Below, one piece after another: positions 3,729-63,040 of a stretch of DNA of 64,000 nucleotides. Made by a program: the position numbers and the translations under genes. The notes below the pieces were generated by a model, which worked only from the letters and a program-made list of their open reading frames with translations, was not told where the DNA came from and made no database searches. The stretch is from contig JBBAAP010000002.1 in the NCBI GenBank assembly GCA_041658285.1, forward strand, positions 44,252 to 108,251, given 5' to 3'. This stretch comes from Candidatus Brocadiia bacterium (GTDB lineage Bacteria > Planctomycetota > MHYJ01 > JACQXL01). Position 1 is the first letter of the stretch. The number at the start of each line of letters is the position of its first letter.

Positions 3729-4659
3729 TGGTATCGTTCTTCCCGGGTTCTTTTTCCTGAACCTTAAGGGTCGGCTGCTTCATAATCTCAAGTATCTCAT
3801 CAGCTGTAACCTTTATTTTATCGCCGTTAGCAATCTCAACAAGAACGGATTGACTGAGCAAGTCTACGTTGATTATCTCTCCCGTTCCTTTGGGGGTCCT
3901 GACAACAGCGCCTTTTCTGGGCAACTGGGTTTTAAGCTCGTTATAGAAAGCGTCCTCGAATCGCAGGCAACACATCAAACGACCACAATAACCTGAAATC
4001 TTGGTCGGATCCAGCGTCGTCTTCTGGGTTTTAGCCATCCTCATAGTCACGGGCTCAAGTTCCTTAACACAAGTCTTGCAACAAAGTTCATGCCCGCAAT
4101 GACCGACATCACCCAGCAGACGCGCCTCATCACGCACGCCGACCTGGTGCATCTCAATCCGCGTGCGGTATTCCTTGGCCAGTTCCTTGACAAGTTCCCT
4201 AAAATCAATACGGCCTTCGGCCATAAAATAGAATACTATCTTCTCCCCGCCCAGCAGGTATTCTACATAAACAATATTTATAGGCAGGTTAAATGCCTTG
4301 GCTTTTTCGGCGCAAAACTTTAATGCGGCCGGTTTTTTTTCCTTCTCTATCTTCTTAAGCTCTTCTAAATCCTGTACCGACAGCTTGCGCAAAATCTCAC
4401 CCATCCGGATCTGTGTCGACTGAGGCGCCGGCGAAGGTTGTGACGGAGCGGCCGAATTTACTGCCGGTTGCGCCTGCTGATTTGGAATGCCTGCCGACTG
4501 GAGCGGCTGCACCAGCTCCGGCTGGGACATGACCGTGCCGATTTCAGTACCCCGGTCGGTCCTGATAACACACTTGTCGCCCAGCTTCAGTCCCGGGACA
4601 TTCCCGTTAAAATTAGAAATCAGCTGTTCCGCGCCATAACGAATCGTTATTAACCACAT
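3718..4659 (-). CDS. yaaT: PSP1 domain protein (RicT/YaaT family)
   Basis: It has the PSP1 signature GYCGRLMCCLRFE and HCGHELCCKTC. It sits at the conserved position next to holB and tmk. Confidence 0.7.
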   Translation of the reverse strand: MWLITIRYGAEQLISNFNGNVPGLKLGDKCVIRTDRGTEIGTVMSQPELVQPLQSAGIPNQQAQPAVNSAAPSQPSPAPQSTQIRMGEILRKLSVQDLEELKKIEKEKKPAALKFCAEKAKAFNLPINIVYVEYLLGGEKIVFYFMAEGRIDFRELVKELAKEYRTRIEMHQVGVRDEARLLGDVGHCGHELCCKTCVKELEPVTMRMAKTQKTTLDPTKISGYCGRLMCCLRFEDAFYNELKTQLPRKGAVVRTPKGTGEIINVDLLSQSVLVEIANGDKIKVTADEILEIMKQPTLKVQEKEPGKNDTNVK

Positions 4660-7993: not shown

Positions 7994-8947
7994 CTATTTG
8001 GACTTGCCCGACCTGGGATGTGCTTTGTCGTAGACCTCTTTGAGCCGGGTAGTGGTGACGTGGGTATATATCTGGGTGGTAGAGATGCTCCGATGGCCAA
8101 GCAATTCCTGGACGCCGCGCAAATCGGCGCCGTGGTCCAACAGGTGCGTGGCAAACGTATGGCGTAAAGTATGCGGCGATATCTTGCGGTTATTCAGGCC
8201 GCTCAACCCGGCATAAAGCGTGATATTACGCCGGATGCTCCGGTCCGTCAGGTGTGCCGATTTGTGCCGGCTGTGGCTGACGAACAGAAACGAATTCAGT
8301 TCGACCGATTCGCCGCTGATTTGTTTGCGCTCGCTTAGATATTTCTCAATGGCCTTGACGGCGTAACTGCCGATGGGCACCAGCCGTTCCTTTTTCCCCT
8401 TGCCCAGCACATGAGCCACCGAGCTGGACAAATCCACATCCTTGATGCGCAGGTTGGCTATCTCGCTGACCCGCACCCCGCTGCTGTAAAGGAACTCCAT
8501 AATCGCCTCGTCCCGCAGTCCGATGATGCCCGTAGCATAAGCCTTTTTGCCCCTGATGACAGCCAGAGGCTCGAGCAGCATCTTGTTCATCTCCTGCTCG
8601 CTCAGGAACTCCGGTATCTTTTTGTCCAACCGCGGCTGGCGTATCAGAACCATCGGGTTACTTTCGATAAAACGGTTCTGAAGCAAGTACTTAAAAAACG
8701 ATTTAAGCGCGGCAATCTTGCGGGCGATGGACGCCTTCTGCAGGTTCACCTCCCGCATATGGAGCAGATAACTCCGAAGGGTCAGGTTGTCAATGGCCTT
8801 GGGGTCAGGGAAAACTTTGGCGTTACTGCTTTTGGCCACGAAGGTGATGAATTGGTCCAAGTCCTTGGCGTAAGCCCGGAGCGTTTCCGGCGAGTAATTC
8901 CGGTTGTATTGCAGGTGTTCCAGGAAATTCTTAACGTAATCGGCCAT
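7994..8947 (-). CDS. xerC: Tyrosine recombinase XerC/XerD
   Basis: The N-terminal core-binding region is LRAYAKDL. The C-terminal catalytic region is HTLRHTFATHLL...LLGHRSISTTQIYTHV with the catalytic Tyr. Confidence 0.8.
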   Translation of the reverse strand: MADYVKNFLEHLQYNRNYSPETLRAYAKDLDQFITFVAKSSNAKVFPDPKAIDNLTLRSYLLHMREVNLQKASIARKIAALKSFFKYLLQNRFIESNPMVLIRQPRLDKKIPEFLSEQEMNKMLLEPLAVIRGKKAYATGIIGLRDEAIMEFLYSSGVRVSEIANLRIKDVDLSSSVAHVLGKGKKERLVPIGSYAVKAIEKYLSERKQISGESVELNSFLFVSHSRHKSAHLTDRSIRRNITLYAGLSGLNNRKISPHTLRHTFATHLLDHGADLRGVQELLGHRSISTTQIYTHVTTTRLKEVYDKAHPRSGKSK

Positions 8948-14701: not shown

Positions 14702-15047
14702 ATATACCTACCTTTTTAGTGGCTGTTAGCAACTCCGATGACCATCGGAGTGGCGTTATCTGCCACTTATCCCGACTATTCCGTCGGGGCCGGGGGGCTC
14801 TTCACTCTCTCCCCCATATATACACCCGTCGAGAACCACGAATGTCACAGGAAAAATGAGAATTTTGTAAAAATAATTCAGAAAGTTTTATGCCAAAGGC
14901 ACCATGCCCGAGGCAGGCGGAGACGAAGATTAAGCCGATTTAGCCGACAGGGTAGATTCCTTGACATAACCGGTTCAATCCTGTATAGATTCACGCCTTA
15001 CCCCGCTCTATCCGTCTTCATCCAAGAGCGGGAGACAGTTTATTGTT

Positions 15048-15077
15048 GCGGGATAACCCGCCGTAAGGCTCTCGTGG
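15048..15077 (+). promoter_or_regulatory. Candidate ECF-sigma-type promoter (GGGATAAC-N15-CGTG) 57 nt upstream of the sigma gene. The element has a second copy at 59124-59152.
   Basis: AAC and CGT lie 15 nt apart. The 30-mer recurs with 28/30 identity at 59124. Confidence 0.3.
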
Positions 15078-54900: not shown

Positions 54901-57391
54901 CAAACTTGGTATAATAGTCGGCAACTATCAGACTAATATTAACAAAACTGAATTAATCAACTATAACCGCGCGCTGTATGGAGCAAATGTATATTTGGAT
55001 GTCCCGGTGCCAAAAGGATTTGACAGATTTGTGCTATTCCCCAATAATATTTCGCTTTTTACCAGCCAGTCGCGTCAGGTGCCGGCCGTGAATGAATTCC
55101 AATCAACCGGCGGCTCGTTCTACTACCTCAAGAACCAAAGCATAGTCACCGGTTCTGAAAAGGTTACCATAGAAACACGGGATAAGCTGTCAAACCTTAC
55201 ATTATCATCTGTCACCAAGGCGCGGGATATTGACTACGAGATAGATTATGGTAACGGCCGGATTATCTTCTTCCAACCGGTTGGAATGGTTCAGGAATCC
55301 AGCACCATAATATCCAGCAATATCCTTAACGGTAACCCGGTCTATATTAAAGTGGCTTACGAATACGAAACAGACGCACTTGATTATTCCAAAGGCGTTT
55401 ACGGCGGACGGATTGCCACGCCTAATATCGGGTTAACCTATATTCAGTCCCGAAATAATCGGGACGGAGTTTATCCCGCCTTCAGCGGGACTGCGGCTTC
55501 GCAAACTGATACGAATGATTATACGATCGGCGGAGCTGATGTGAACCTCAGTTTCCCGATTAGCGGAACCGGTTCCATTGACATCAAAGCCGAATACGCC
55601 CAGTCCGAGTCAACCGGAATACCGGACTACTTTTCGCTGGACGGCGGTTCCGGTTTCAGCCCGATCAGCACGACCAAGACCGACGGCAACGCCTATCTCT
55701 TAAAGACCAGGGCCGACATCACCAAGGATATCCAGACCAGCCTGGTTTACCAACGCACCGGTGAAGGATTCGAATCCACCGCTACTTCAGCCAACCAAGG
55801 CACACAGAAATACGGCATGAATACGACCATCAAAACCAGCGACAGGTTAAAATTCATGGTCGGTTATGACGCACAGGAAACGCTGGAACCCAATCCGGCC
55901 ACTATTGCCGGCACGCTCATAGGCGCGCAGAAAAACCAGACCGCTTTCCTGCAGGCAAATTGGGCGCTGGAGCCGGGGAAACTCAACCTAACCGGCGAAT
56001 ACCGGTATCAGGATGTAGAAATTCCGTCTACTGCCCTGTCTGATAACAACTCAGGGACAGATATCCTGGCCGCCCGGCTGGATTACCAATACACCAAACA
56101 AACCCGACTCTTTGTCGCCCAACAGTTTGCAATTCAGGATACCCCCACTAACCAATATTCCAACACCCAGACAACCTTGGGCGGCTCGACCATATTCTCG
56201 GATAAATCACAGCTATCGGTCCAGGGCTCGGTGGCCACAGACGCTTATTCGGTCCTGAGCGGTTTCTCGTATCCGGTCAGCTCCAGAACCAATATGTATA
56301 CCAATTACGGATTAGGCGCCTCTGATACCGAAGGCCAGACGATGACCTCGGCCATCGGCGGCCGAAGCCAGGTCACAAATAAAACATCCGTTTACGCACA
56401 GGAAGAATACAAGACCTCGGACAAGGAACAGATGGTTTCCAACAACCAAAAGGTGGGCGAGGAAACACAGCTAACATCAGAGTGGACCGTAAGGAACTCA
56501 TTTGAGACCGGCCTGGTCAATTACTTCGACGAAACACAGACCACAAGACAGGTCGTGTCAGTTAATGCACAATATAGCCACAAACCCGCCCGAACGACTG
56601 TTCAGTCGGGCGGGGACACAAAGGACACAAAGAATACGGAAGATCTAAAATCAGGCTTAACGACATTAAGCACCAAGTTAGAATTCCGGGCCGACAACGG
56701 TATTCAAAACAAGAAGCAATACCTGACCGCCAATAACCTCAAATATCAGTTGACCGAAGACCTATCCGGAATGTTGAGGTTGAACTGGGCTCGGACAGAC
56801 AACACCACTACCGATAAGGTCGAAAGCCTGTTCCGTGAATACGGCATCGGCACGGCGCTCCGGCCGGTCAAATGGGACAAATGGCTCCTTATTGCCAAGT
56901 ACACCTATCTGGAAGACATAAGGAACCAATCAAACAGCCAGATAAAAGCCAACATCTACGCCCTGGAAACGGCCTATGATATTTTACCCCCATTGCAAGT
57001 GGTTGAAAAATACGCGCACCGCCGGATGTCTGAGGAAATCGGCTATATCCCCGAGACCCACAGTAATACCGACTTATGGATAAACCGCATTAACTACACG
57101 TTTGGCGCTACAGCGCCATGGCGCTCTGCGAACACAAACCACCTGAAAAGCTTTATAGTCGGCGGCGAGTATCGTATCCTCAGAACCGAGGCAAAGAATT
57201 CACTGACAGACCAACTGACCGGAGGCACGACGGACAAAAAGACCGGCTATCTGGCGGAAATAGGATACAAGTTCGATAAGACCATGCATTTCGGCATCGG
57301 CTACAACTTCACCGACTTCACCGATAACCTGGAACATACCTATGACTATTCGGTGCGCGGATTCTTTATCCGGATGAATATTGCATATTAG
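51935..57391 (+). CDS. 1818 aa surface protein: signal peptide, about 10 PQQ-like beta-propeller repeats, a DUF11 conserved-repeat domain, an SdrD-B/Cna-B-like domain, and ~1000 aa of predicted outer-membrane beta-barrel region
   Basis: The repeats are TxYALNxNGTLKW(S/T)... The DUF11-like region is NIVLSKKANKQYITIGEIITYNITVSN. The Cna-B-like region is GRVFIDTNANGVFDQGE. The C-terminal half has alternating hydrophobic residues and ends in an aromatic residue (Y). Confidence 0.6.
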   Translation: MHIEYRPYKIAILFFTLYYIFTPAISAEPAVNAPLVEVIYTWNQPKNPFDDIIYRRLSRTLDKEEAVYYYAMYARCKDEILITGEDDVPLQEWLPDRVIVNGKALQSNDYTGYIGKSRIILYQQSPYGLLELGEMDKNGVYAESIEFVNTTASQIGQESPPSLWYIGGSILGAASILDYVKNDKEPTNHAPTALFNVIPETGSTNTVFWFDAGTSSDIDEPVQNLMVRWDWENDGVWDTSFSIAKTITRTFTAGAHTIAMQMRDSAGAFVTATKTITVIAPGGPLAATPQPIFHTNLQRTGLTAMAGPVTDTVKRQYATGGVIQSSPVIAADNTIYAGSFDGKVYALNPNGTLKWASQILGQIYSTPAIGSDGTLYIGAGTALYALNNTTGAVNWSYNTGNTVRSSPAIGADGTIYFGSGNGNIYAVNYDGSFKWLYPTGGAVDSAPAIAADGTLYIGSNDNYLYALDTNPLSLRWRYQAGGAIVGVPAVGADGTVYAGATNGIIYAINPNGTLKWTAATAGPVYSSPAVNATTLHVGSDDFSLYSIALATGGINWSFPTTATIRSSPAIDTTGNIYFGSDDGRVYCLNSAGTVVWSRDIGSAVRSSPAINNSNVGASPAVVYIGADNGSLYTIGSGPADPANIVLSKKANKQYITIGEIITYNITVSNFTSTTDTSNNNIVIDTIPAGFRYIPGSSVIDGVNLADPVITGTALTFPDLDAIAPGQTKTLSYQLIAGSGLAKGRYVNSAYCDYFDVIWKTSNTASEEVMVIDDPLFDLGTIMGRVFIDTNANGVFDQGEKGVASATIIMENGVLAITDKEGMYHIPAVKPGTHHLKIGSYAEDYSVGLSQIVRVTEGLLLKVNFAINPKYSDNIYKNGYGGVMLGSGEIGYSSVKGNTDLANRDKRLQKRLYTDGRLAFYTNFVMHPEAHVIVSYDTDRISNKNTDLFKYTDPDKYYPTYGDNSRVSYEGANTQGPLYLLAEMGDGNTHKLGIIVGNYQTNINKTELINYNRALYGANVYLDVPVPKGFDRFVLFPNNISLFTSQSRQVPAVNEFQSTGGSFYYLKNQSIVTGSEKVTIETRDKLSNLTLSSVTKARDIDYEIDYGNGRIIFFQPVGMVQESSTIISSNILNGNPVYIKVAYEYETDALDYSKGVYGGRIATPNIGLTYIQSRNNRDGVYPAFSGTAASQTDTNDYTIGGADVNLSFPISGTGSIDIKAEYAQSESTGIPDYFSLDGGSGFSPISTTKTDGNAYLLKTRADITKDIQTSLVYQRTGEGFESTATSANQGTQKYGMNTTIKTSDRLKFMVGYDAQETLEPNPATIAGTLIGAQKNQTAFLQANWALEPGKLNLTGEYRYQDVEIPSTALSDNNSGTDILAARLDYQYTKQTRLFVAQQFAIQDTPTNQYSNTQTTLGGSTIFSDKSQLSVQGSVATDAYSVLSGFSYPVSSRTNMYTNYGLGASDTEGQTMTSAIGGRSQVTNKTSVYAQEEYKTSDKEQMVSNNQKVGEETQLTSEWTVRNSFETGLVNYFDETQTTRQVVSVNAQYSHKPARTTVQSGGDTKDTKNTEDLKSGLTTLSTKLEFRADNGIQNKKQYLTANNLKYQLTEDLSGMLRLNWARTDNTTTDKVESLFREYGIGTALRPVKWDKWLLIAKYTYLEDIRNQSNSQIKANIYALETAYDILPPLQVVEKYAHRRMSEEIGYIPETHSNTDLWINRINYTFGATAPWRSANTNHLKSFIVGGEYRILRTEAKNSLTDQLTGGTTDKKTGYLAEIGYKFDKTMHFGIGYNFTDFTDNLEHTYDYSVRGFFIRMNIAY

Positions 57392-57567
57392 TGCCGGTTC
57401 GAGTGTAACGAGTTACCGGCACTTATCCCCGAGCATAGCGAGTGGGATTAGTGACACTTGGAGCCCTGCCCAAAGGCGGGACAGCGCAGCATCCTGTAAG
57501 GATAAACTCCGCGAATTATCCCTAGACCCTGAGAGGTCTTGGGCCAAGAACCCGTACGGGCTGCCAG

Positions 57568-58437
57568 CTATAATTGCAGATGTCTGAGTTGATTATCCGG
57601 CACGCGGAATCCCGACCAGTGCACGTATTCCTCGGTAGGCAGATTTTCGTATTGTTTCGGCGTGAGCGCCAGTATGAAACCGCCCTGAACGCTTATCTTG
57701 CGGTAATGCAGTTCGGCAAAGAACTTGTCATTGGGCATATCGGCGTGAATGCTCTTTAGCGTCTTAAAATCGTGGTAATCCTGGTTACTTCCGACGAAGC
57801 CGTCATAGGCGCTGTCTTTGACGTAATAAAGGTCTTTCCTCTTGTAATATTTATCCAACGCCTGGCTCCAAAAAAATATGCCTTTGACGCCGGTGGTGCC
57901 GTAGGAATATTTATGATCCAGCATATAACGGCTGACCTCGGTACGGATAAAGCGCCAGACTCCGGCAATCTTGGTAGCCGGCAGTTTGCCTTCCCTGACC
58001 AGCCGGTAAATCGTCCGGCGGTTGACGCCTAGCGCCTGGGCCACCTGATTCAAGGTCATCACCCCGCCCTCAAAGTTCATCCCTAAAACATGGCCGGGCA
58101 CATCGCGGCTATGAGTCAGGAATTGACGAACCTCTGACTGAAGAAACTGCCACCTGCCGCCTAACTTTACAGCGGGCAACTTCTTCACATTAATTAACCG
58201 ATAAATGGTAAACCGGCTTAGGCCCAGATATTCGCAGACCTCTTTCAGGGTCATCAGGCCGGGTTTAATAATGTATTTGGTTGGCGTTTTGTATACAAGC
58301 AGTTTCTCAACGTCCTTCTGTTCAAAACGCCACTGTCCGCCGATGCGCTTGGCAGGCAATTTCCCTGATTTGAGCAACCGGTAAACCGTGCGGGTAGAGA
58401 TACCCAGTTGTTTACAGACGTCATTTACAGTTAGCAT
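57568..58437 (-). CDS. DNA-binding protein with three tandem excisionase/MerR-type HTH domains and a ~140 aa uncharacterised C-terminal domain
   Basis: Three tandem copies of the LT(V/L)xxVxxxLG(I/L/V)SxxT(V/I)YRL(L/I)xxGKLPAxK(I/L)GGxWRF pattern. Confidence 0.6.
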   Translation of the reverse strand: MLTVNDVCKQLGISTRTVYRLLKSGKLPAKRIGGQWRFEQKDVEKLLVYKTPTKYIIKPGLMTLKEVCEYLGLSRFTIYRLINVKKLPAVKLGGRWQFLQSEVRQFLTHSRDVPGHVLGMNFEGGVMTLNQVAQALGVNRRTIYRLVREGKLPATKIAGVWRFIRTEVSRYMLDHKYSYGTTGVKGIFFWSQALDKYYKRKDLYYVKDSAYDGFVGSNQDYHDFKTLKSIHADMPNDKFFAELHYRKISVQGGFILALTPKQYENLPTEEYVHWSGFRVPDNQLRHLQL

Positions 58438-58582
58438 ATAAGTTATGTAAGCGGATTTAGCTGATTTATCAGATTTAGAACCATCGGCTTAATCTGCTTA
58501 ATCAGCTTACTAAACAGGACAAAATATGACAAGAAATGTAGTGCAATGTTGCAGGATAGGACAGGCTATGGCACTGACCAGT

Positions 58583-58936
58583 ACCTACACTACTACTACC
58601 CCCTGCCTACACCTCTACCACCCCTGGCCTACACCTCTACTACCTCTGGCCTGCACCTCTACTACCTCCGGCCTGCACCTCTACTACCTCCGGCCTACAC
58701 CTCTACTACCTCCAGCCTACACCTCTACTACCTCCAGCCTGCACCTCTACTACCTCCAGCCTACACCTCTACTACCCCCGGCCTACACCTCTACTACCTC
58801 CGGCCTTCACCTCTACTACCTCCGGCCTACACCTCTACTACCTCTGGCCTACACCTCTACTACCCCCGACCTACATCTATACTACCCCTGACTTACACCC
58901 ATATTACCTCCGGCTTACAGTCCTACCACTATCGGC
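58583..58936. repeat. Degenerate tandem array of about 16 units of a 22 bp pyrimidine-rich repeat (consensus CCTACACCTCTACTACCTCCGG)
   Basis: Direct reading shows near-identical central units and degenerate flanks, with no spacers. The six-frame ORFs here (58526..58891, 58546..58980) are translation artefacts of the repeat. Confidence 0.9.
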
Positions 58937-58957
58937 TTTCACATAGGGGTAGGCAGG

Positions 58958-59010
58958 AATGTGTGACGTCGCACATTTGAGAGCAGGTATAATGTTAGAC
59001 GTCTAACATT
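58958..59010. promoter_or_regulatory. Two 20 bp palindromes centred on GACGTC (AATGTGTGACGTCGCACATT and AATGTTAGACGTCTAACATT) spaced 33 bp centre-to-centre; candidate tandem operator for a dimeric regulator
   Basis: One is a perfect 20 bp palindrome and the other near-perfect (19/20). They lie immediately right of the 22 bp array. Confidence 0.4.
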
Positions 59011-59177
59011 TTACCAAGAAGGGTATTAAAAAAATGTTGGCCGGCAAACATTTACCAGATATGGTTATTGCGCTTCTATCCCGCTTTATTCATAAATGCC
59101 TTGCGGCGTTTGCATTCTGCGGTAGCGGGATAAACCGCCGTAAGGCTCTCGGGACCATCAAACTGCCAGAGTATAAT

Positions 59178-59600
59178 TTATGAATTATTCGGGTCTATCA
59201 GCTTGAGCCATTCATCCGGCGGGTCTATTTGCAGTCCCTTGAGGATTTTCTTGATGTAATCCGGTTCACGGGAATCAAACTGGTTGTGAGATGGAATACG
59301 ACAAAGAAATTGCAGGCTGGGAATATTTGTAACCAGGAGCGGTTCTATATGGAAATAAGTGTTGTGCTCGTCATAACTCATATCAATAATCTTCAAGAAT
59401 ACGAAAGGAAGATTGGTTGGGTCAGCGCTTTTGCCCTGAATCATTCCCCGGCTATACACCCCTAAGCCGGGCAGTGGACAGGAGCCTTTGAGGGCATCCC
59501 AATCCTCTAATTTGGTATGCCTGATACTGACATACTCGGCCTGCCTGGCCCTTTCCCAGTAAGGGCTTTGCGGGGTGTAAAGGACAATAATCTTTTTCAT
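59178..59600 (-). CDS. Hypothetical protein (140 aa) in a low-GC islet
   Basis: It is a clean ORF with local GC clearly below the window average. I recognise no motifs. Confidence 0.35.
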   Translation of the reverse strand: MKKIIVLYTPQSPYWERARQAEYVSIRHTKLEDWDALKGSCPLPGLGVYSRGMIQGKSADPTNLPFVFLKIIDMSYDEHNTYFHIEPLLVTNIPSLQFLCRIPSHNQFDSREPDYIKKILKGLQIDPPDEWLKLIDPNNS

Positions 59601-59709
59601 TATAAAAATAACCTCTGGCGCCGAAGCGCCATGGCGCCCTTATGGCGCCACTTTTCATTTCAGAAACATTTTCTGGTATCGCGTCCCCTAAATTTCCCTT
59701 ACTTATTTA

Positions 59710-60474
59710 TTAGGTGTTGCCCCCATTTTCGTTAATATCCTTAGAACTAACATATACTGTTACTGGAATCTTATGACCCTTCTCATATTCATATTTAAGT
59801 GCACCCAAAAATAGAATTTCAATAACACCTTCAGCCCTTTTGACCGCCGTTTTATAACTAATCCCATGAATGCCTATTATAACTAAGGCTAAAATAAAGA
59901 CTGGAATAATATTCCAAGGAATAGACGTAGTTCCATTTTTAAAAAGCAAAATTAGCCAAAAACATAGAGCAAAAACAGAACCGATTAATGCAGTTCCAAA
60001 ACCATGAACAATGTCTGAAAGACTATCTGTGCGTTCATTCGCTCCCTTAATTATACAGGATGTTTCTCTTCCAGCATGCCAAGTACCTGATACTACATGC
60101 CAAGCACCTGCTCTGCTTAATGCATTAGCTTTAACCTCCGTATCATCATTTTGACGACGTAATTCCAACCACTTCATTTTTTCGGCGCTTATAATTACTT
60201 CCTGATGATTAACACCGCAATAATCAAATCTTTTTGTCCAATACAATACGTGATAAATCATTCCTAAAAGATACCCTATTCCGGTCGCAGCAAAAATCAA
60301 AAGAGTTGTGGCCGAAATGTCAGATCCTGTTTTGGTTGCATCGGCTACAGCGTTCCTTATTGAGGGTGTGTGACACAGGAACAAATAAAAACCTAACTCA
60401 ATAAATAGTGCGGCACTTGGAAATATATAACGTAGGATACGTCTGGCTTCATTCATAGTGTTCTCCTTTTTCAA
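59710..60474 (-). CDS. Membrane protein with a 2 TM + ~85 aa soluble loop + 2 TM architecture, in a low-GC islet (~35-38% GC)
   Basis: Four clear hydrophobic helices are present, and the sequence is AT-rich. I recognise no motifs. Confidence 0.45.
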   Translation of the reverse strand: MKKENTMNEARRILRYIFPSAALFIELGFYLFLCHTPSIRNAVADATKTGSDISATTLLIFAATGIGYLLGMIYHVLYWTKRFDYCGVNHQEVIISAEKMKWLELRRQNDDTEVKANALSRAGAWHVVSGTWHAGRETSCIIKGANERTDSLSDIVHGFGTALIGSVFALCFWLILLFKNGTTSIPWNIIPVFILALVIIGIHGISYKTAVKRAEGVIEILFLGALKYEYEKGHKIPVTVYVSSKDINENGGNT

Positions 60475-60523
60475 ATTCCGGGGACGCCTTACTTATCTAT
60501 TCAGTATGCTGTCCCTCGAATTA

Positions 60524-63040
60524 TTACTGCCCCGCCTGCGTTGGGGTATTCCTCTGAGTAGTCGTCCCATCTCCTAATTGACCATTGTCGTTGAGTCCCC
60601 AAGCCCAGAATGAGCCGTCGGTTTTTAATGCACTGGTGTGAGCGCCACCAGCGGCGATGGCTGACCAGCCCGTGCCAATAAGCGTCGGGGTGTTCTTATT
60701 AATTGTTGTCCCGTCCCCTAATCGACCAAAGCCATTAGATCCCCATGCCCAGAGTGTGCCGTCGGTCTTTAAGGCAATGGCGTGCTCCTCACCAGCGGCG
60801 ATGGCAGAGAAGCCCGTGCCAATCAGTGTTGGGGTCAAGTTAGCATATATTGTTCCATCGGCTAATGCACCATACCCGTTCGAGCCCCAAGTATGAAGCG
60901 AGCCATCTGACTTTAAGGCAATGGTGTGATACCAACCAGCGGCGATGGCTGACCAACCCGTGCCAATAAGCGTCGGGATCAATTTATTAGTCCCGTATCC
61001 ACTTGTCCCATCGCCTAATTGACCAGACCTATTCCAGCCCCAAGTATAGAGCGAGCCATCTGATTTTAAGGCAACGGTGTGCTCGTAACCAGCGGCAATG
61101 ACTGACCAGTTGTTCTCAGTGCCAATCCGGGTTGGGGTAGTCTTACTTATCGTTGTCCCATCACCTAATTGACCATATTCGTTATATCCCCAAGTCCAAA
61201 GTGAGCCGTTTGCTTTCAAGGCGATGGTGTGCCAGCCTCCAGCAGCAATAGCTAACCAGTCAGTATCAGTACCAATACGAGTTGGGGTATTTTTATTAGT
61301 ACCAATTGTCCCATCACCCAATTGACCGTAGGCATTATCTCCCCAGGCCCAGAGTGTGCCATCGATCTTGAGGGCAATGTTGTACCCGACGCCAGCGTCA
61401 ATGGCTGACCAGTTGGTATCCGTGCCAATCCGGGTCGGGGTCAATCTATTAGTTGTTGTCCCATCGCCTAATTCACCATAGAAGTTCTGTCCCCAGGCAT
61501 AGAGCGAGCCATCGATCTTTAAGGCAATGGTGTGCCCGCTACCAGCCGCAATGACCGACCAATCTCTTGCCCTAACATATACTTCGTTAGAATAGGCGCT
61601 GGCGGCTACGTTGTTATAAGCCCGAACACGATAATAATAGGTCGAAGAAAGAGAAAGATTTGTATCTGTGTAGACGGAGGTATTTGCCGTTACTGTAATA
61701 AGGAGTGAATAGGCGGTATTTGTTACGCCCCGTTCTATCTCGTATCCGTCTTCATTATCAGTAGTATCAATCCAGTAAAGCGCTATTGCGGTACGTGAAA
61801 TGATTGTAAGAAGTCCTAAAGGCGCGATAAGTAGTGTGGTGGCTGATGCCTCGTTGGTGTAGGTGCTATCACCGTTTGAATTATAAGCCATGATGCGGTA
61901 AGAGTAGACCGTTCCATCTGTCAGTCCGGTATTGGAATAAGTAGTTAGATTGGCACTAACTGTAGTAATCTGTGTCCATATTCCACCTGCACCGGTCTTG
62001 CACTCTATCTTAAATCCGTCTTCATTACTGGAATTATCGGTCCAGGTGAGGTTAATCTGTGATGTTGACACGGTATTAGCCGACAGGATAGTCGGCGCAT
62101 TGAGAGCAATTGCATCAGATGCCTCGTTGGAATAGGCGGAATTAGTGGTTGCATTATACGCCCTGACCCGATAATAATAGATGGCACCATCTACCAAGCC
62201 GGTATTGGAATATGTGATGATATTTGCGCCTATGTCGGCAATCTGGCTATAGGTTCCGCCGGAGCCGGTTTTACGCTCTATTTTATAGCCGGTTTCATTA
62301 TCGGTATTATCCGTCCAGGTCAAATCAATCTGCGAAGAGGAAATAACCGCAACATTCAGCGATAACGGCGGCGCTATCTGAGTAGTAAAACTCCAGACCG
62401 TGCCAGTAGTCGTGCCGGTAGCATTCTTTGAGTCAATCCGCCAGTAATAAGTAGTGCTATATGTAAACGTGCCGGGATTATAACTCGTGCCGGACTGATT
62501 GATAATAAATGTTCCCGGCGAGGTCGTACCGAAATAAACATCATAAGAAGTAGCCCCGCTGGCTGATGCCCAACCTAACTGTTGATTAATAGACGCATTA
62601 ATTGTATTATTAGCCGGGCTTGGCGAGGTTACCTGTGCAGACGGTGCTATTTGCGTGATAAAGGTCCAGACATTACCGGTAGTTGTCCCAACACTATTTT
62701 TGGAATCTATCCGCCAGTAATAGGTGGTGCTATATGTAAGTGTATCAGGATTATAACTCGTGCCGGACTGATTGCCGACAAATGTCCCAGGTGCAGTTGT
62801 GCCGAAAAAGACATCATAAGAAGTTGCGCCACTGACAGAAGCCCAAGAGACTTGAGTAGTTGTTATCACATTAGTTGCGCTATTAGACGGTGTCGGTGAG
62901 GTTACTTGGGCAGTTGCGGTTGGTGTTCCGCTACTGCCACTTGAGCCACCAATGTCTCCACAACCGCCATAATTAAATGCGGTGATATAAGCAATAAACA
63001 TAATAACTGTGGCTGTTTTTAATATGGATTTACTGTGCAT
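60524..63040 (-). CDS. Secreted protein with ~5 N-terminal FN3-like repeats and a C-terminal seven-bladed RCC1-like beta-propeller
   Basis: It has a signal peptide. The repeated ~85 aa modules read ...SWASVSGATSYDV(F/Y)FGTT.PGTF..NQSGTSYNP.T.TYSTTYYWRIDSKN and YYYRVRAYN. Seven blade repeats follow the H(T/A)IALK.DGSL..WG.N..GQLGDGT pattern. Confidence 0.65.
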   Translation of the reverse strand: MHSKSILKTATVIMFIAYITAFNYGGCGDIGGSSGSSGTPTATAQVTSPTPSNSATNVITTTQVSWASVSGATSYDVFFGTTAPGTFVGNQSGTSYNPDTLTYSTTYYWRIDSKNSVGTTTGNVWTFITQIAPSAQVTSPSPANNTINASINQQLGWASASGATSYDVYFGTTSPGTFIINQSGTSYNPGTFTYSTTYYWRIDSKNATGTTTGTVWSFTTQIAPPLSLNVAVISSSQIDLTWTDNTDNETGYKIERKTGSGGTYSQIADIGANIITYSNTGLVDGAIYYYRVRAYNATTNSAYSNEASDAIALNAPTILSANTVSTSQINLTWTDNSSNEDGFKIECKTGAGGIWTQITTVSANLTTYSNTGLTDGTVYSYRIMAYNSNGDSTYTNEASATTLLIAPLGLLTIISRTAIALYWIDTTDNEDGYEIERGVTNTAYSLLITVTANTSVYTDTNLSLSSTYYYRVRAYNNVAASAYSNEVYVRARDWSVIAAGSGHTIALKIDGSLYAWGQNFYGELGDGTTTNRLTPTRIGTDTNWSAIDAGVGYNIALKIDGTLWAWGDNAYGQLGDGTIGTNKNTPTRIGTDTDWLAIAAGGWHTIALKANGSLWTWGYNEYGQLGDGTTISKTTPTRIGTENNWSVIAAGYEHTVALKSDGSLYTWGWNRSGQLGDGTSGYGTNKLIPTLIGTGWSAIAAGWYHTIALKSDGSLHTWGSNGYGALADGTIYANLTPTLIGTGFSAIAAGEEHAIALKTDGTLWAWGSNGFGRLGDGTTINKNTPTLIGTGWSAIAAGGAHTSALKTDGSFWAWGLNDNGQLGDGTTTQRNTPTQAGQ

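Follow-up and report, generated by a model that had tools for sequence, protein, structure and literature searches.

Three related palindromes beside a 22-bp repeat array in a planctomycete chromosome are candidate binding sites for a neighbouring winged helix-turn-helix protein

The 64-kb stretch of DNA analysed here, from a Candidatus Brocadiia bacterium (contig JBBAAP010000002.1, positions 44,252–108,251; hereafter the window), contains a cluster of three palindromes, or dyads, designated D1, D2 and D3, situated between a 22-bp tandem array and a gene coding for a 140-aa protein. The dyads are a real, related and non-random cluster of palindromes of a known general kind, and they match the site of no known regulator exactly. 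We tentatively favour, with somewhat less than even confidence, the explanation that they are bound by protein, most likely by the winged helix-turn-helix (wHTH) protein associated with the array, and that they act at a distance; in this we infer the binding, the protein involved and the effect of its binding.

D1 (58958–58977; AATGTGTGACGTCGCACATT) is a 20-bp palindrome centred on GACGTC that lies against the degenerate distal part of the array and has a single mismatch, at arm position 7/14 (T7/G14, which is T·G on the + strand and C·A on the other strand). D2 (58991–59010; AATGTTAGACGTCTAACATT) is a perfect 20-bp palindrome whose symmetry reaches 30 bp (GGTAtAATGT...ACATTtTACC, 58986–59015). 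D3 (59033–59052; AATGTTGGCCGGCAAACATT) has the arms of D1 and D2 around a GCCGGC centre and, like D1, a single mismatch at arm position 7/14; in the window only it is followed by a run of seven T residues on the minus (sense) strand. A previous reading made from the letters alone (the sequence-only reading) had described twin 20-bp palindromes in helical phase at 58958–59010. Both are present, the first with its one mismatch and the second perfect, and their start-to-start distance is 33 bp as it reported, but it overlooked the third member of the cluster, which lies 42 bp from D2. Additionally, 33 bp make three turns only at 11 bp per turn, and 3.14 turns at 10.5 bp per turn.

Searches of the window showed that the cluster is not expected by chance. 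The GACGTC pattern AATGTNNGACGTCNNACATT with up to two mismatches was found three times, against 0.01 expected, and AATGT-N10-ACATT also three times, against 0.07 expected. The more relaxed pattern TGT-N10-ACA, with at least four of the five inner pairs complementary, again gave three matches, all of them within 95 bp, compared to 0.17 in Markov simulations. There were no further copies in the rest of the 64 kb, and 114 kb of related Planctomycete DNA contained only the two orthologues described below. We could thus rule out dispersed repeats of the repetitive extragenic palindrome or bacterial interspersed mosaic element (REP/BIME) type, since no scattered copies exist in either data set. A BLAST search with the dyad region against plasmids and phages produced no match.

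The sole close relative keeping the dyads is a 2.7-kb contig from the Joint Genome Institute (JGI), designated L139, where, compared with the window, the DNA sequence identity is 85 % for the homologue of the 140-aa gene and ca. 71 % for the array. L139 keeps D3, as TGTTTGCCGGCAAACA with a perfect core, and D2, as ATGTCTGACGTCAGACAT (also given as AATGTCTGACGTCAGACAT); D1 is confined to the lineage of the window and is missing from the alignment. Between the window and L139, D2 changes from TA..TA to CT..AG, four substitutions that are exactly mirrored between the two arms. Considering the five dyads from both loci, 13 of the 15 variable arm positions are symmetric, a number reached by 128 of 100,000 shuffles (p≈0.001). 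The four central nucleotides are self-complementary in every copy (ACGT or CCGG), and the only change between the centre of D3 and that of D1 and D2 is a symmetric pair, A to C and T to G; the arms AATGT/ACAT are invariant across these two types of centre. The symmetry of the dyads is most likely maintained by selection. Taken together, the mirrored changes and the self-complementary centres favour recognition of the duplex by a symmetric protein over an RNA hairpin, and the idea of protein binding put forward by the sequence-only reading is reasonable: what speaks for operator-like sites is a symmetry preserved through change and the self-complementary centres, whereas what speaks against them is that no promoter is conserved at the dyads.

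Indeed, a scan for promoter and terminator consensus sequences called nothing at the dyads. The start of D1 lies 521 bp from the ATG, at 58437, of a gene coding for a protein with three HTH domains (the triple-HTH gene), in agreement with the distance of about 520 bp given before. This gene, however, has its own conserved promoter ca. 450 bp away, with the array in between, and the dyads are therefore not its operator in the usual sense; its more distant orthologues have the array but lack dyads. Lacking an overlapping conserved promoter, and at ca. 450 bp from that of the HTH gene, the dyads would act at a distance. Their location had been described as between the array and the end of a low-GC gene. 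They do adjoin the array, but the neighbouring gene end is that of the 140-aa open reading frame (ORF), with a local GC of ca. 0.43–0.47, and the low-GC gene is one further.

In the explanation that we favour, the dyads would bind a two-fold-symmetric DNA-binding protein, or an equally symmetric protein assembly, in which each HTH would contact one of the outer AATGT/ACATT arms by reading its TG/CA step, and the G+C-rich centre would lie between the arms. Once bound, the dyads could serve to mark or seed a nucleoprotein complex where the array has its distal edge, loop to pair with similar half-sites at the HTH gene promoter, or block read-through from the upstream 140-aa gene.

The best candidate binders, with only moderate support, are the BldC/RacA-like wHTH proteins encoded beside the arrays. 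In the window, the triple-HTH gene (57568–58437, minus strand) codes for 289 aa comprising three BldC/RacA-like HTH_17 domains and an uncharacterised C-terminal domain, whose ca. 110 residues found no match in Pfam or among PDB sequences. The family comprises ca. 30 proteins, from Planctomycetes only, with several paralogues possible per metagenome-assembled genome (MAG). The three domains superpose on the BldC-DNA and RacA-DNA structures, on Pukovnik Xis and on the DNA-binding domain of pSK1 Par (root-mean-square deviation of 1.0–3.3 Å, 22–38 % identity), with RacA as the closest solved relative by sequence. The base-reading residues K15 and R19 of RacA, and R30 of BldC, align with R16 and R20 of the triple-HTH protein, and the arginine of its T[VI]YRL motif is, across the three domains, invariant as R20 and R145 and nearly invariant as R80. 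RacA binds clustered, spacer-less 14-bp palindromes with a G+C-rich centre, a conserved Arg reading the terminal TG/CA steps (PMC4914108), and BldC, Xis and D29 Gp36 assemble cooperatively on clustered repeats (PMC5859096, PMC12266134).

Half-sites related to the dyads also occur at promoters of these genes. The array-associated protein of L139 (309 aa) contains a Zn-ribbon, one HTH_17 and the same C-terminal domain. Around the promoter of its gene, TTGACT-N17-TAATTG, the D3-type half-site AATTGTTT(GC) recurs three times (simulated p≈0.001), and one of these copies has a D2-type AATGTCT right next to it. In the window, the conserved promoter repeat TGCAACATT, read on the opposite strand, gives AATGTTG, the arm of D3.

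Several results weigh against this explanation, within which the least secure part is which protein binds. Despite the closely related dyads, 140-aa gene and array, the array-associated protein of L139 is only a paralogue of the triple-HTH protein (40 % identity over their shared part), so that the dyads travel with the 140-aa gene and the array and not with a particular HTH protein. Orthologous loci with DNA extending beyond the array (L005, L006, L010, L083, L140 and L143) contain no comparable palindrome; being missing from these distant loci with array and HTH gene, the dyads are not an obligatory or constant part of the module but a lineage-specific conserved element. Neither is the spacing conserved, contrary to the in-phase arrangement suggested by the sequence-only reading: the sequence between dyads cannot be aligned between the window and L139, and the centres of D2 and D3 are 42 bp apart in the former and 29 bp in the latter, where D1 is absent. 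When scored with a weight matrix derived from the conserved promoter repeats of other loci, the six dyad half-sites reach no more than the 96th to 99.9th percentile, and they lack the TG that is invariant in those repeats. Finally, correction of quasi-palindromes by template switching could be a non-selective source of mirrored substitutions.

This last process is central to an improbable alternative, namely that the dyads have no function and result from local duplication, with their symmetry kept by such templated correction. Double changes that are symmetric, like those seen here, are what templated correction typically leaves behind; besides, the lineage-specific D1 resembles a local duplicate of D2, and most loci with the array module have no dyads. 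Nevertheless, two dyads have stayed at orthologous positions while their intergenic surroundings diverged past alignment and changed in length, related half-sites recur non-randomly at the L139 promoter, and the two types of centre share invariant AATGT/ACAT arms. More can be said for hairpins, of RNA or of single-stranded DNA, forming in the 3′ untranslated part of the transcript of the 140-aa gene, although we still consider this role unlikely. As terminators or stabilising stem-loops they would be well placed, because they start 22 nt (L139) or 126 nt (window) past the stop codon of the 140/151-aa gene and are found only with that gene; compensatory changes are expected of hairpins, a T7 tract follows D3 on the sense strand in the window, and the region folds better than shuffled sequence (z of −2.4 for the sense and −3.8 for the antisense strand). 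However, the stems on the sense strand are A+U-rich and weak (−2.7, −4.9 and −11.4 kcal/mol for D3, D1 and D2, respectively), and the D1 mismatch is C·A on that strand, with a G·U wobble only in the antisense. A U-tract follows neither of the L139 dyads and only D3 in the window, the terminator scan flagged no dyad, and a search of positions 57000–61000 against Rfam, on both strands, gave no match with E≤1. Moreover, the would-be tetraloop is self-complementary in every copy and its sole change is symmetric, neither of which is needed by a hairpin; duplex palindromes are constrained in this manner, but loops are not.

An unlinked dimeric regulator of the CRP/FNR, ParB/Noc or LacI type, controlling a local promoter or organising the DNA, is about as doubtful as the hairpins. 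The CRP consensus is 22 bp long, AAATGTGA-N6-TCACATTT, and the outer arms AAATGT...ACATTT and N6 geometry of the dyads coincide with it, D1 reading TGTGC-N6-ACACA; the core of D2, TGTTAGACGTCTAACA, differs from parS, TGTTNCACGTGNAACA, only by a symmetric C6G/G11C swap. Possible promoter elements also exist in the window, namely a + strand TATAAT that overlaps the left D2 arm and, on the − strand, the pair TTGGTA-N17-CATTAT bracketing D2. These promoters are nonetheless weak, were not called by the scan and are absent from L139, and the key G (position 7 of the CRP half-site, position 4 of the TGTGA core) varies among the dyads. There is no gene of the CRP/FNR, ParA/ParB or LacI type in the window, according to Pfam searches with 46 of its ORFs and a motif scan for ParA/ParB, and no further site occurs in the 64 kb, or in the 114 kb of related DNA outside L139. 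We also discarded parS proper, whose best match is D2 with two symmetric mismatches, because the window contains no more matches than chance would give and lacks ParAB genes. Boxes of the Zur/Fur type have an odd 7-1-7 geometry and were discarded for this reason, although they share the AAATGTTA arms with the dyads. We likewise give little credence to sites for recombination or a mobile element (res-, dif- or attC-like), or to the boundary of an inserted islet. A resolvase res site consists of three dyad subsites with unequal spacing, which the three unequally spaced dyads recall; HTH_17 is the fold of excisionases, the locus is a mosaic between the window and L139, and an insertion resembling a miniature inverted-repeat transposable element (MITE) lies 27 bp from D3. 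Against this, no recombinase is encoded nearby, the only one in the window being a Xer-like integrase (7994–8947) situated 50 kb away; the breakpoints of the mosaic fall outside the dyads, one upstream of the 140-aa gene and the other where the array ends on its promoter side; and the spacing between half-sites is equal in the three dyads, unlike in res subsites. The layout of dif is 11-6-11 and attC needs separated R″ and R′ boxes, and by eye the geometry of arms and centre in the dyads is unlike that of both.

The array contiguous to the dyads (58584–58919) contains 15.3 copies of the unit CCTACACCTCTACTACCTCCGG, with degenerate copies extending to ca. 58518–58957. A 144-aa ORF spanning it was rejected because 22 is not a multiple of three and all the frames are open. 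Every orthologous locus with enough upstream DNA has an array with a period of 22 (21 or 22 in L083), amounting to 13 loci with 3–18 copies; the sequence of the unit differs from locus to locus, and most short-read contigs end inside the array. Its promoter-proximal side is occupied by a conserved block (58504–58580, minus strand) of six phased direct repeats, of the TGNCATAT and TGCAACATTT types and spaced 10–12 bp apart, which run into a sigma-70-like promoter. An alignment of 16 loci showed that the block is near-invariant, with a promoter consensus TTGtCA-N17-TAttAg; for the triple-HTH gene of the window, the hexamers read from the alignment are TTGTCA (−35; 58527–58532) and TAAGCT (−10; 58504–58509), on the minus strand. 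It is plausible that the six direct repeats are autoregulatory sites of the triple-HTH gene. Overlapping the −10 box and the 5′ leader of this gene there is a 33-nt inverted repeat (58442–58515) with 3+3 copies of the 9-bp unit TAAGCNGAT. Similar 3+3 inverted repeats were found in L004, where an insert of ca. 130 bp splits them, and in L007, L079, L081 and L083. In L139, a palindrome (1362–1376; AAATGTAACATTT) overlaps the start codon of the 309-aa Zn-ribbon/HTH_17 gene, and an inverted pair (1262–1360; AATTGTTTGCAC ... GTGCAAACAACT) brackets its promoter.

Array, phased-repeat promoter and a gene for one to three HTH_17 domains plus the uncharacterised C-terminal domain make up a module of which Brocadiia-related Planctomycete MAGs carry several copies per genome. 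The loci of the module that we considered are those of the window (58504–58957 and 57568–58437), L004–L007, L010, L076–L083, L139, L140, L142 and L143. Three of them (L079, ca. 300–760; L140, 4538–4996; L142, 417–860) carry, between the promoter block and the triple-HTH gene, an ORF of ca. 150 aa that resembles HTH_23/HTH_29/Terminase_5 (similar to the N-terminus of transposases) and is preceded by 23-bp repeats.

The combination of array and multi-HTH protein is more unusual than the dyads themselves. On their own, the dyads are another probable cluster of protein-binding palindromes, of modest value, and their main importance is as an entry point to the neighbouring module, with period-22 arrays of locus-specific units that recur in an uncultured Planctomycete lineage and systematically break short-read assemblies. 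If one protein were shared by the dyads and the promoter half-sites, this would offer a tractable in-vitro system for the behaviour of a fused MerR-like wHTH on inverted versus direct repeats, and the locus could also show what the arrays are for. As a speculative extension, to which we assign a low probability, the dyads might be the distal anchors of an undescribed chromosomal nucleoprotein module, present in multiple copies per genome in Brocadiia-related Planctomycetes. Its parts would be, in order, the array, with a period of about two helical turns and a fast-evolving unit, the six promoter repeats, the 3+3 inverted set and the wHTH gene, and the protein would coat the array, or loop it, from the dyads to the promoter-proximal half-sites. 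Such a module could be a centromere or architectural element of the RacA or Par kind, or else an autoregulatory switch that senses copy number.

The window is chromosomal, containing dapB, accA, radA, ruvC, tmk and genes for the delta′ subunit of DNA polymerase III and for sugar-nucleotide enzymes among other ordinary genes. All the genes around the dyads are on the minus strand and the order of transcription is: a low-GC gene of 254 aa, the 140-aa gene, an insertion of ca. 115 bp, D3, D2, D1, the 22-bp array, the conserved block and the 289-aa triple-HTH gene. The 254-aa gene (59710–60474, minus strand) belongs to the BA5345 family and has a GC content of 0.36–0.40. Between it and the 140-aa gene (59616–59650) there are overlapping GGCGCC-rich hairpins with T-runs on both strands, resembling a bidirectional terminator. 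An independent assembly of the locus from the European Nucleotide Archive (ENA) stops at ca. 59644, hinting at strain variation at the boundary of the low-GC islet.

The 140-aa gene (59178–59600, minus strand), directly upstream of the dyads, codes for a stand-alone YTH/PUA-like reader domain. Its AlphaFold model (pLDDT 95.6) matches YTH readers of m6A, the PUA-like N-terminal domains of Lon and the m5C-binding N-terminal domain of Thermococcus McrB, so that the predicted protein looks like a stand-alone reader of modified bases. It has a single close homologue, and an exhaustive HMMER search retrieved 43 relatives; most of these are ca. 300 aa long, with the module followed by a PDG...VYDCK nuclease domain of the PD-(D/E)xK type. 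The ca. 40 remote homologues, mostly fused to a nuclease, suggest an unannotated family of modification-dependent restriction-like enzymes. We did not retain this protein as binder of the dyads, because its reader fold and nuclease-fused homologues make a palindrome-specific repressor unlikely. The MITE-like insertion of ca. 115 bp (59080–59193), with 18-nt terminal inverted repeats, is placed between D3 and the end of the 140-aa ORF on its 3′ side and corresponds to a gap in L139. It supplies the stop codon of the 140-aa ORF, and the L139 homologue, lacking the element, has 151 aa. A second copy, with both ends matching, exists in the Planctomycete contig L082 (ca. 3986–4136), and a 30-bp fragment in the window at 15045–15074. 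Lastly, a 49-aa ORF starting inside D3 (59034–59183) was discarded for want of a family match and of conservation, since ca. 108 bp of it are missing from L139.

A further symmetric variant of the dyads, the 20-mer AATGTAAGACGTCTTACATT, occurs identically in two viral contigs from IMG/VR (L145, 3073–3092; L146, 11075–11094; sample 3300014059), in both cases directly upstream of a Shine-Dalgarno sequence and the start codon of a gene on the opposite strand. The two copies are homologous to each other, and since their number is no higher than a rough chance estimate we did not use them as evidence.

Compared to known systems, the dyads show partial likenesses with several. The lambda OR1–3 and lac O1/O3 operators and the pairs of NrdR boxes are cooperative operator pairs or triplets of dimeric repressors. 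As in these, several related and two-fold symmetric sites lie within 100 bp, with spacings in the window (33 and 42 bp) that are near integral turns. However, the dyads neither overlap nor abut −35 and −10 boxes, no promoter being conserved at them, and helical phasing is not conserved either (29 bp in L139); besides, they are located downstream of one gene and ca. 450 bp upstream of the next promoter. With CRP/FNR sites they share the geometry of arms and spacer, but the inner specificity positions differ or vary, the regulator gene is absent from the 64-kb window, and the dyads are not at −41.5 or −61.5 from a recognisable promoter. In turn, they lack the stable G+C-rich stem and the conserved U-tract of an intrinsic terminator.

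The ram sites of RacA from Bacillus subtilis (14 bp, TGACGCCGGCGTCA; PMC4914108) are likewise clustered, spacer-less palindromes with a G+C-rich centre and TG/CA ends, and the HTH domains encoded next to the dyads match RacA in sequence and fold, with basic residues that align with K15/R19. The dyads, though, do not conform to the 14-bp consensus TGACGCCGGCGTCA, being of 16–20 bp with A+T-rich AATGT/ACATT arms, and resemble it only in the TG/CA ends and the GACG/GCCGGC elements. RacA acts on ca. 25 origin-proximal regions, as opposed to the single cluster found here, where binding is only predicted, and it consists of one HTH plus a coiled coil, whereas the local protein has three tandem HTHs plus an alpha/beta C-terminal domain. 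BldC, lambda and Pukovnik Xis and D29 Gp36 (PMC5859096, PMC12266134) belong to the same domain class as the neighbouring protein. BldC-type proteins bind direct repeats head-to-tail, whereas the dyads are inverted repeats, and the likeness thus concerns the promoter block, whose six phased repeats of the CATTT-N4 type, of ca. 10–12 bp, are reminiscent of the AATTxxxx(C) units of BldC. The Par system of pSK1 is plasmid-borne and combines 12-bp repeats with a protein having a single wHTH plus a coiled coil. Its centromere (PDB 8csh) offers a likeness to the whole locus, in that a wHTH gene is preceded by a repeat array, with an inverted repeat close to direct repeats; in contrast to it, the module described here is chromosomal and multi-copy, with a period of 22 bp and unit sequences that differ between loci.

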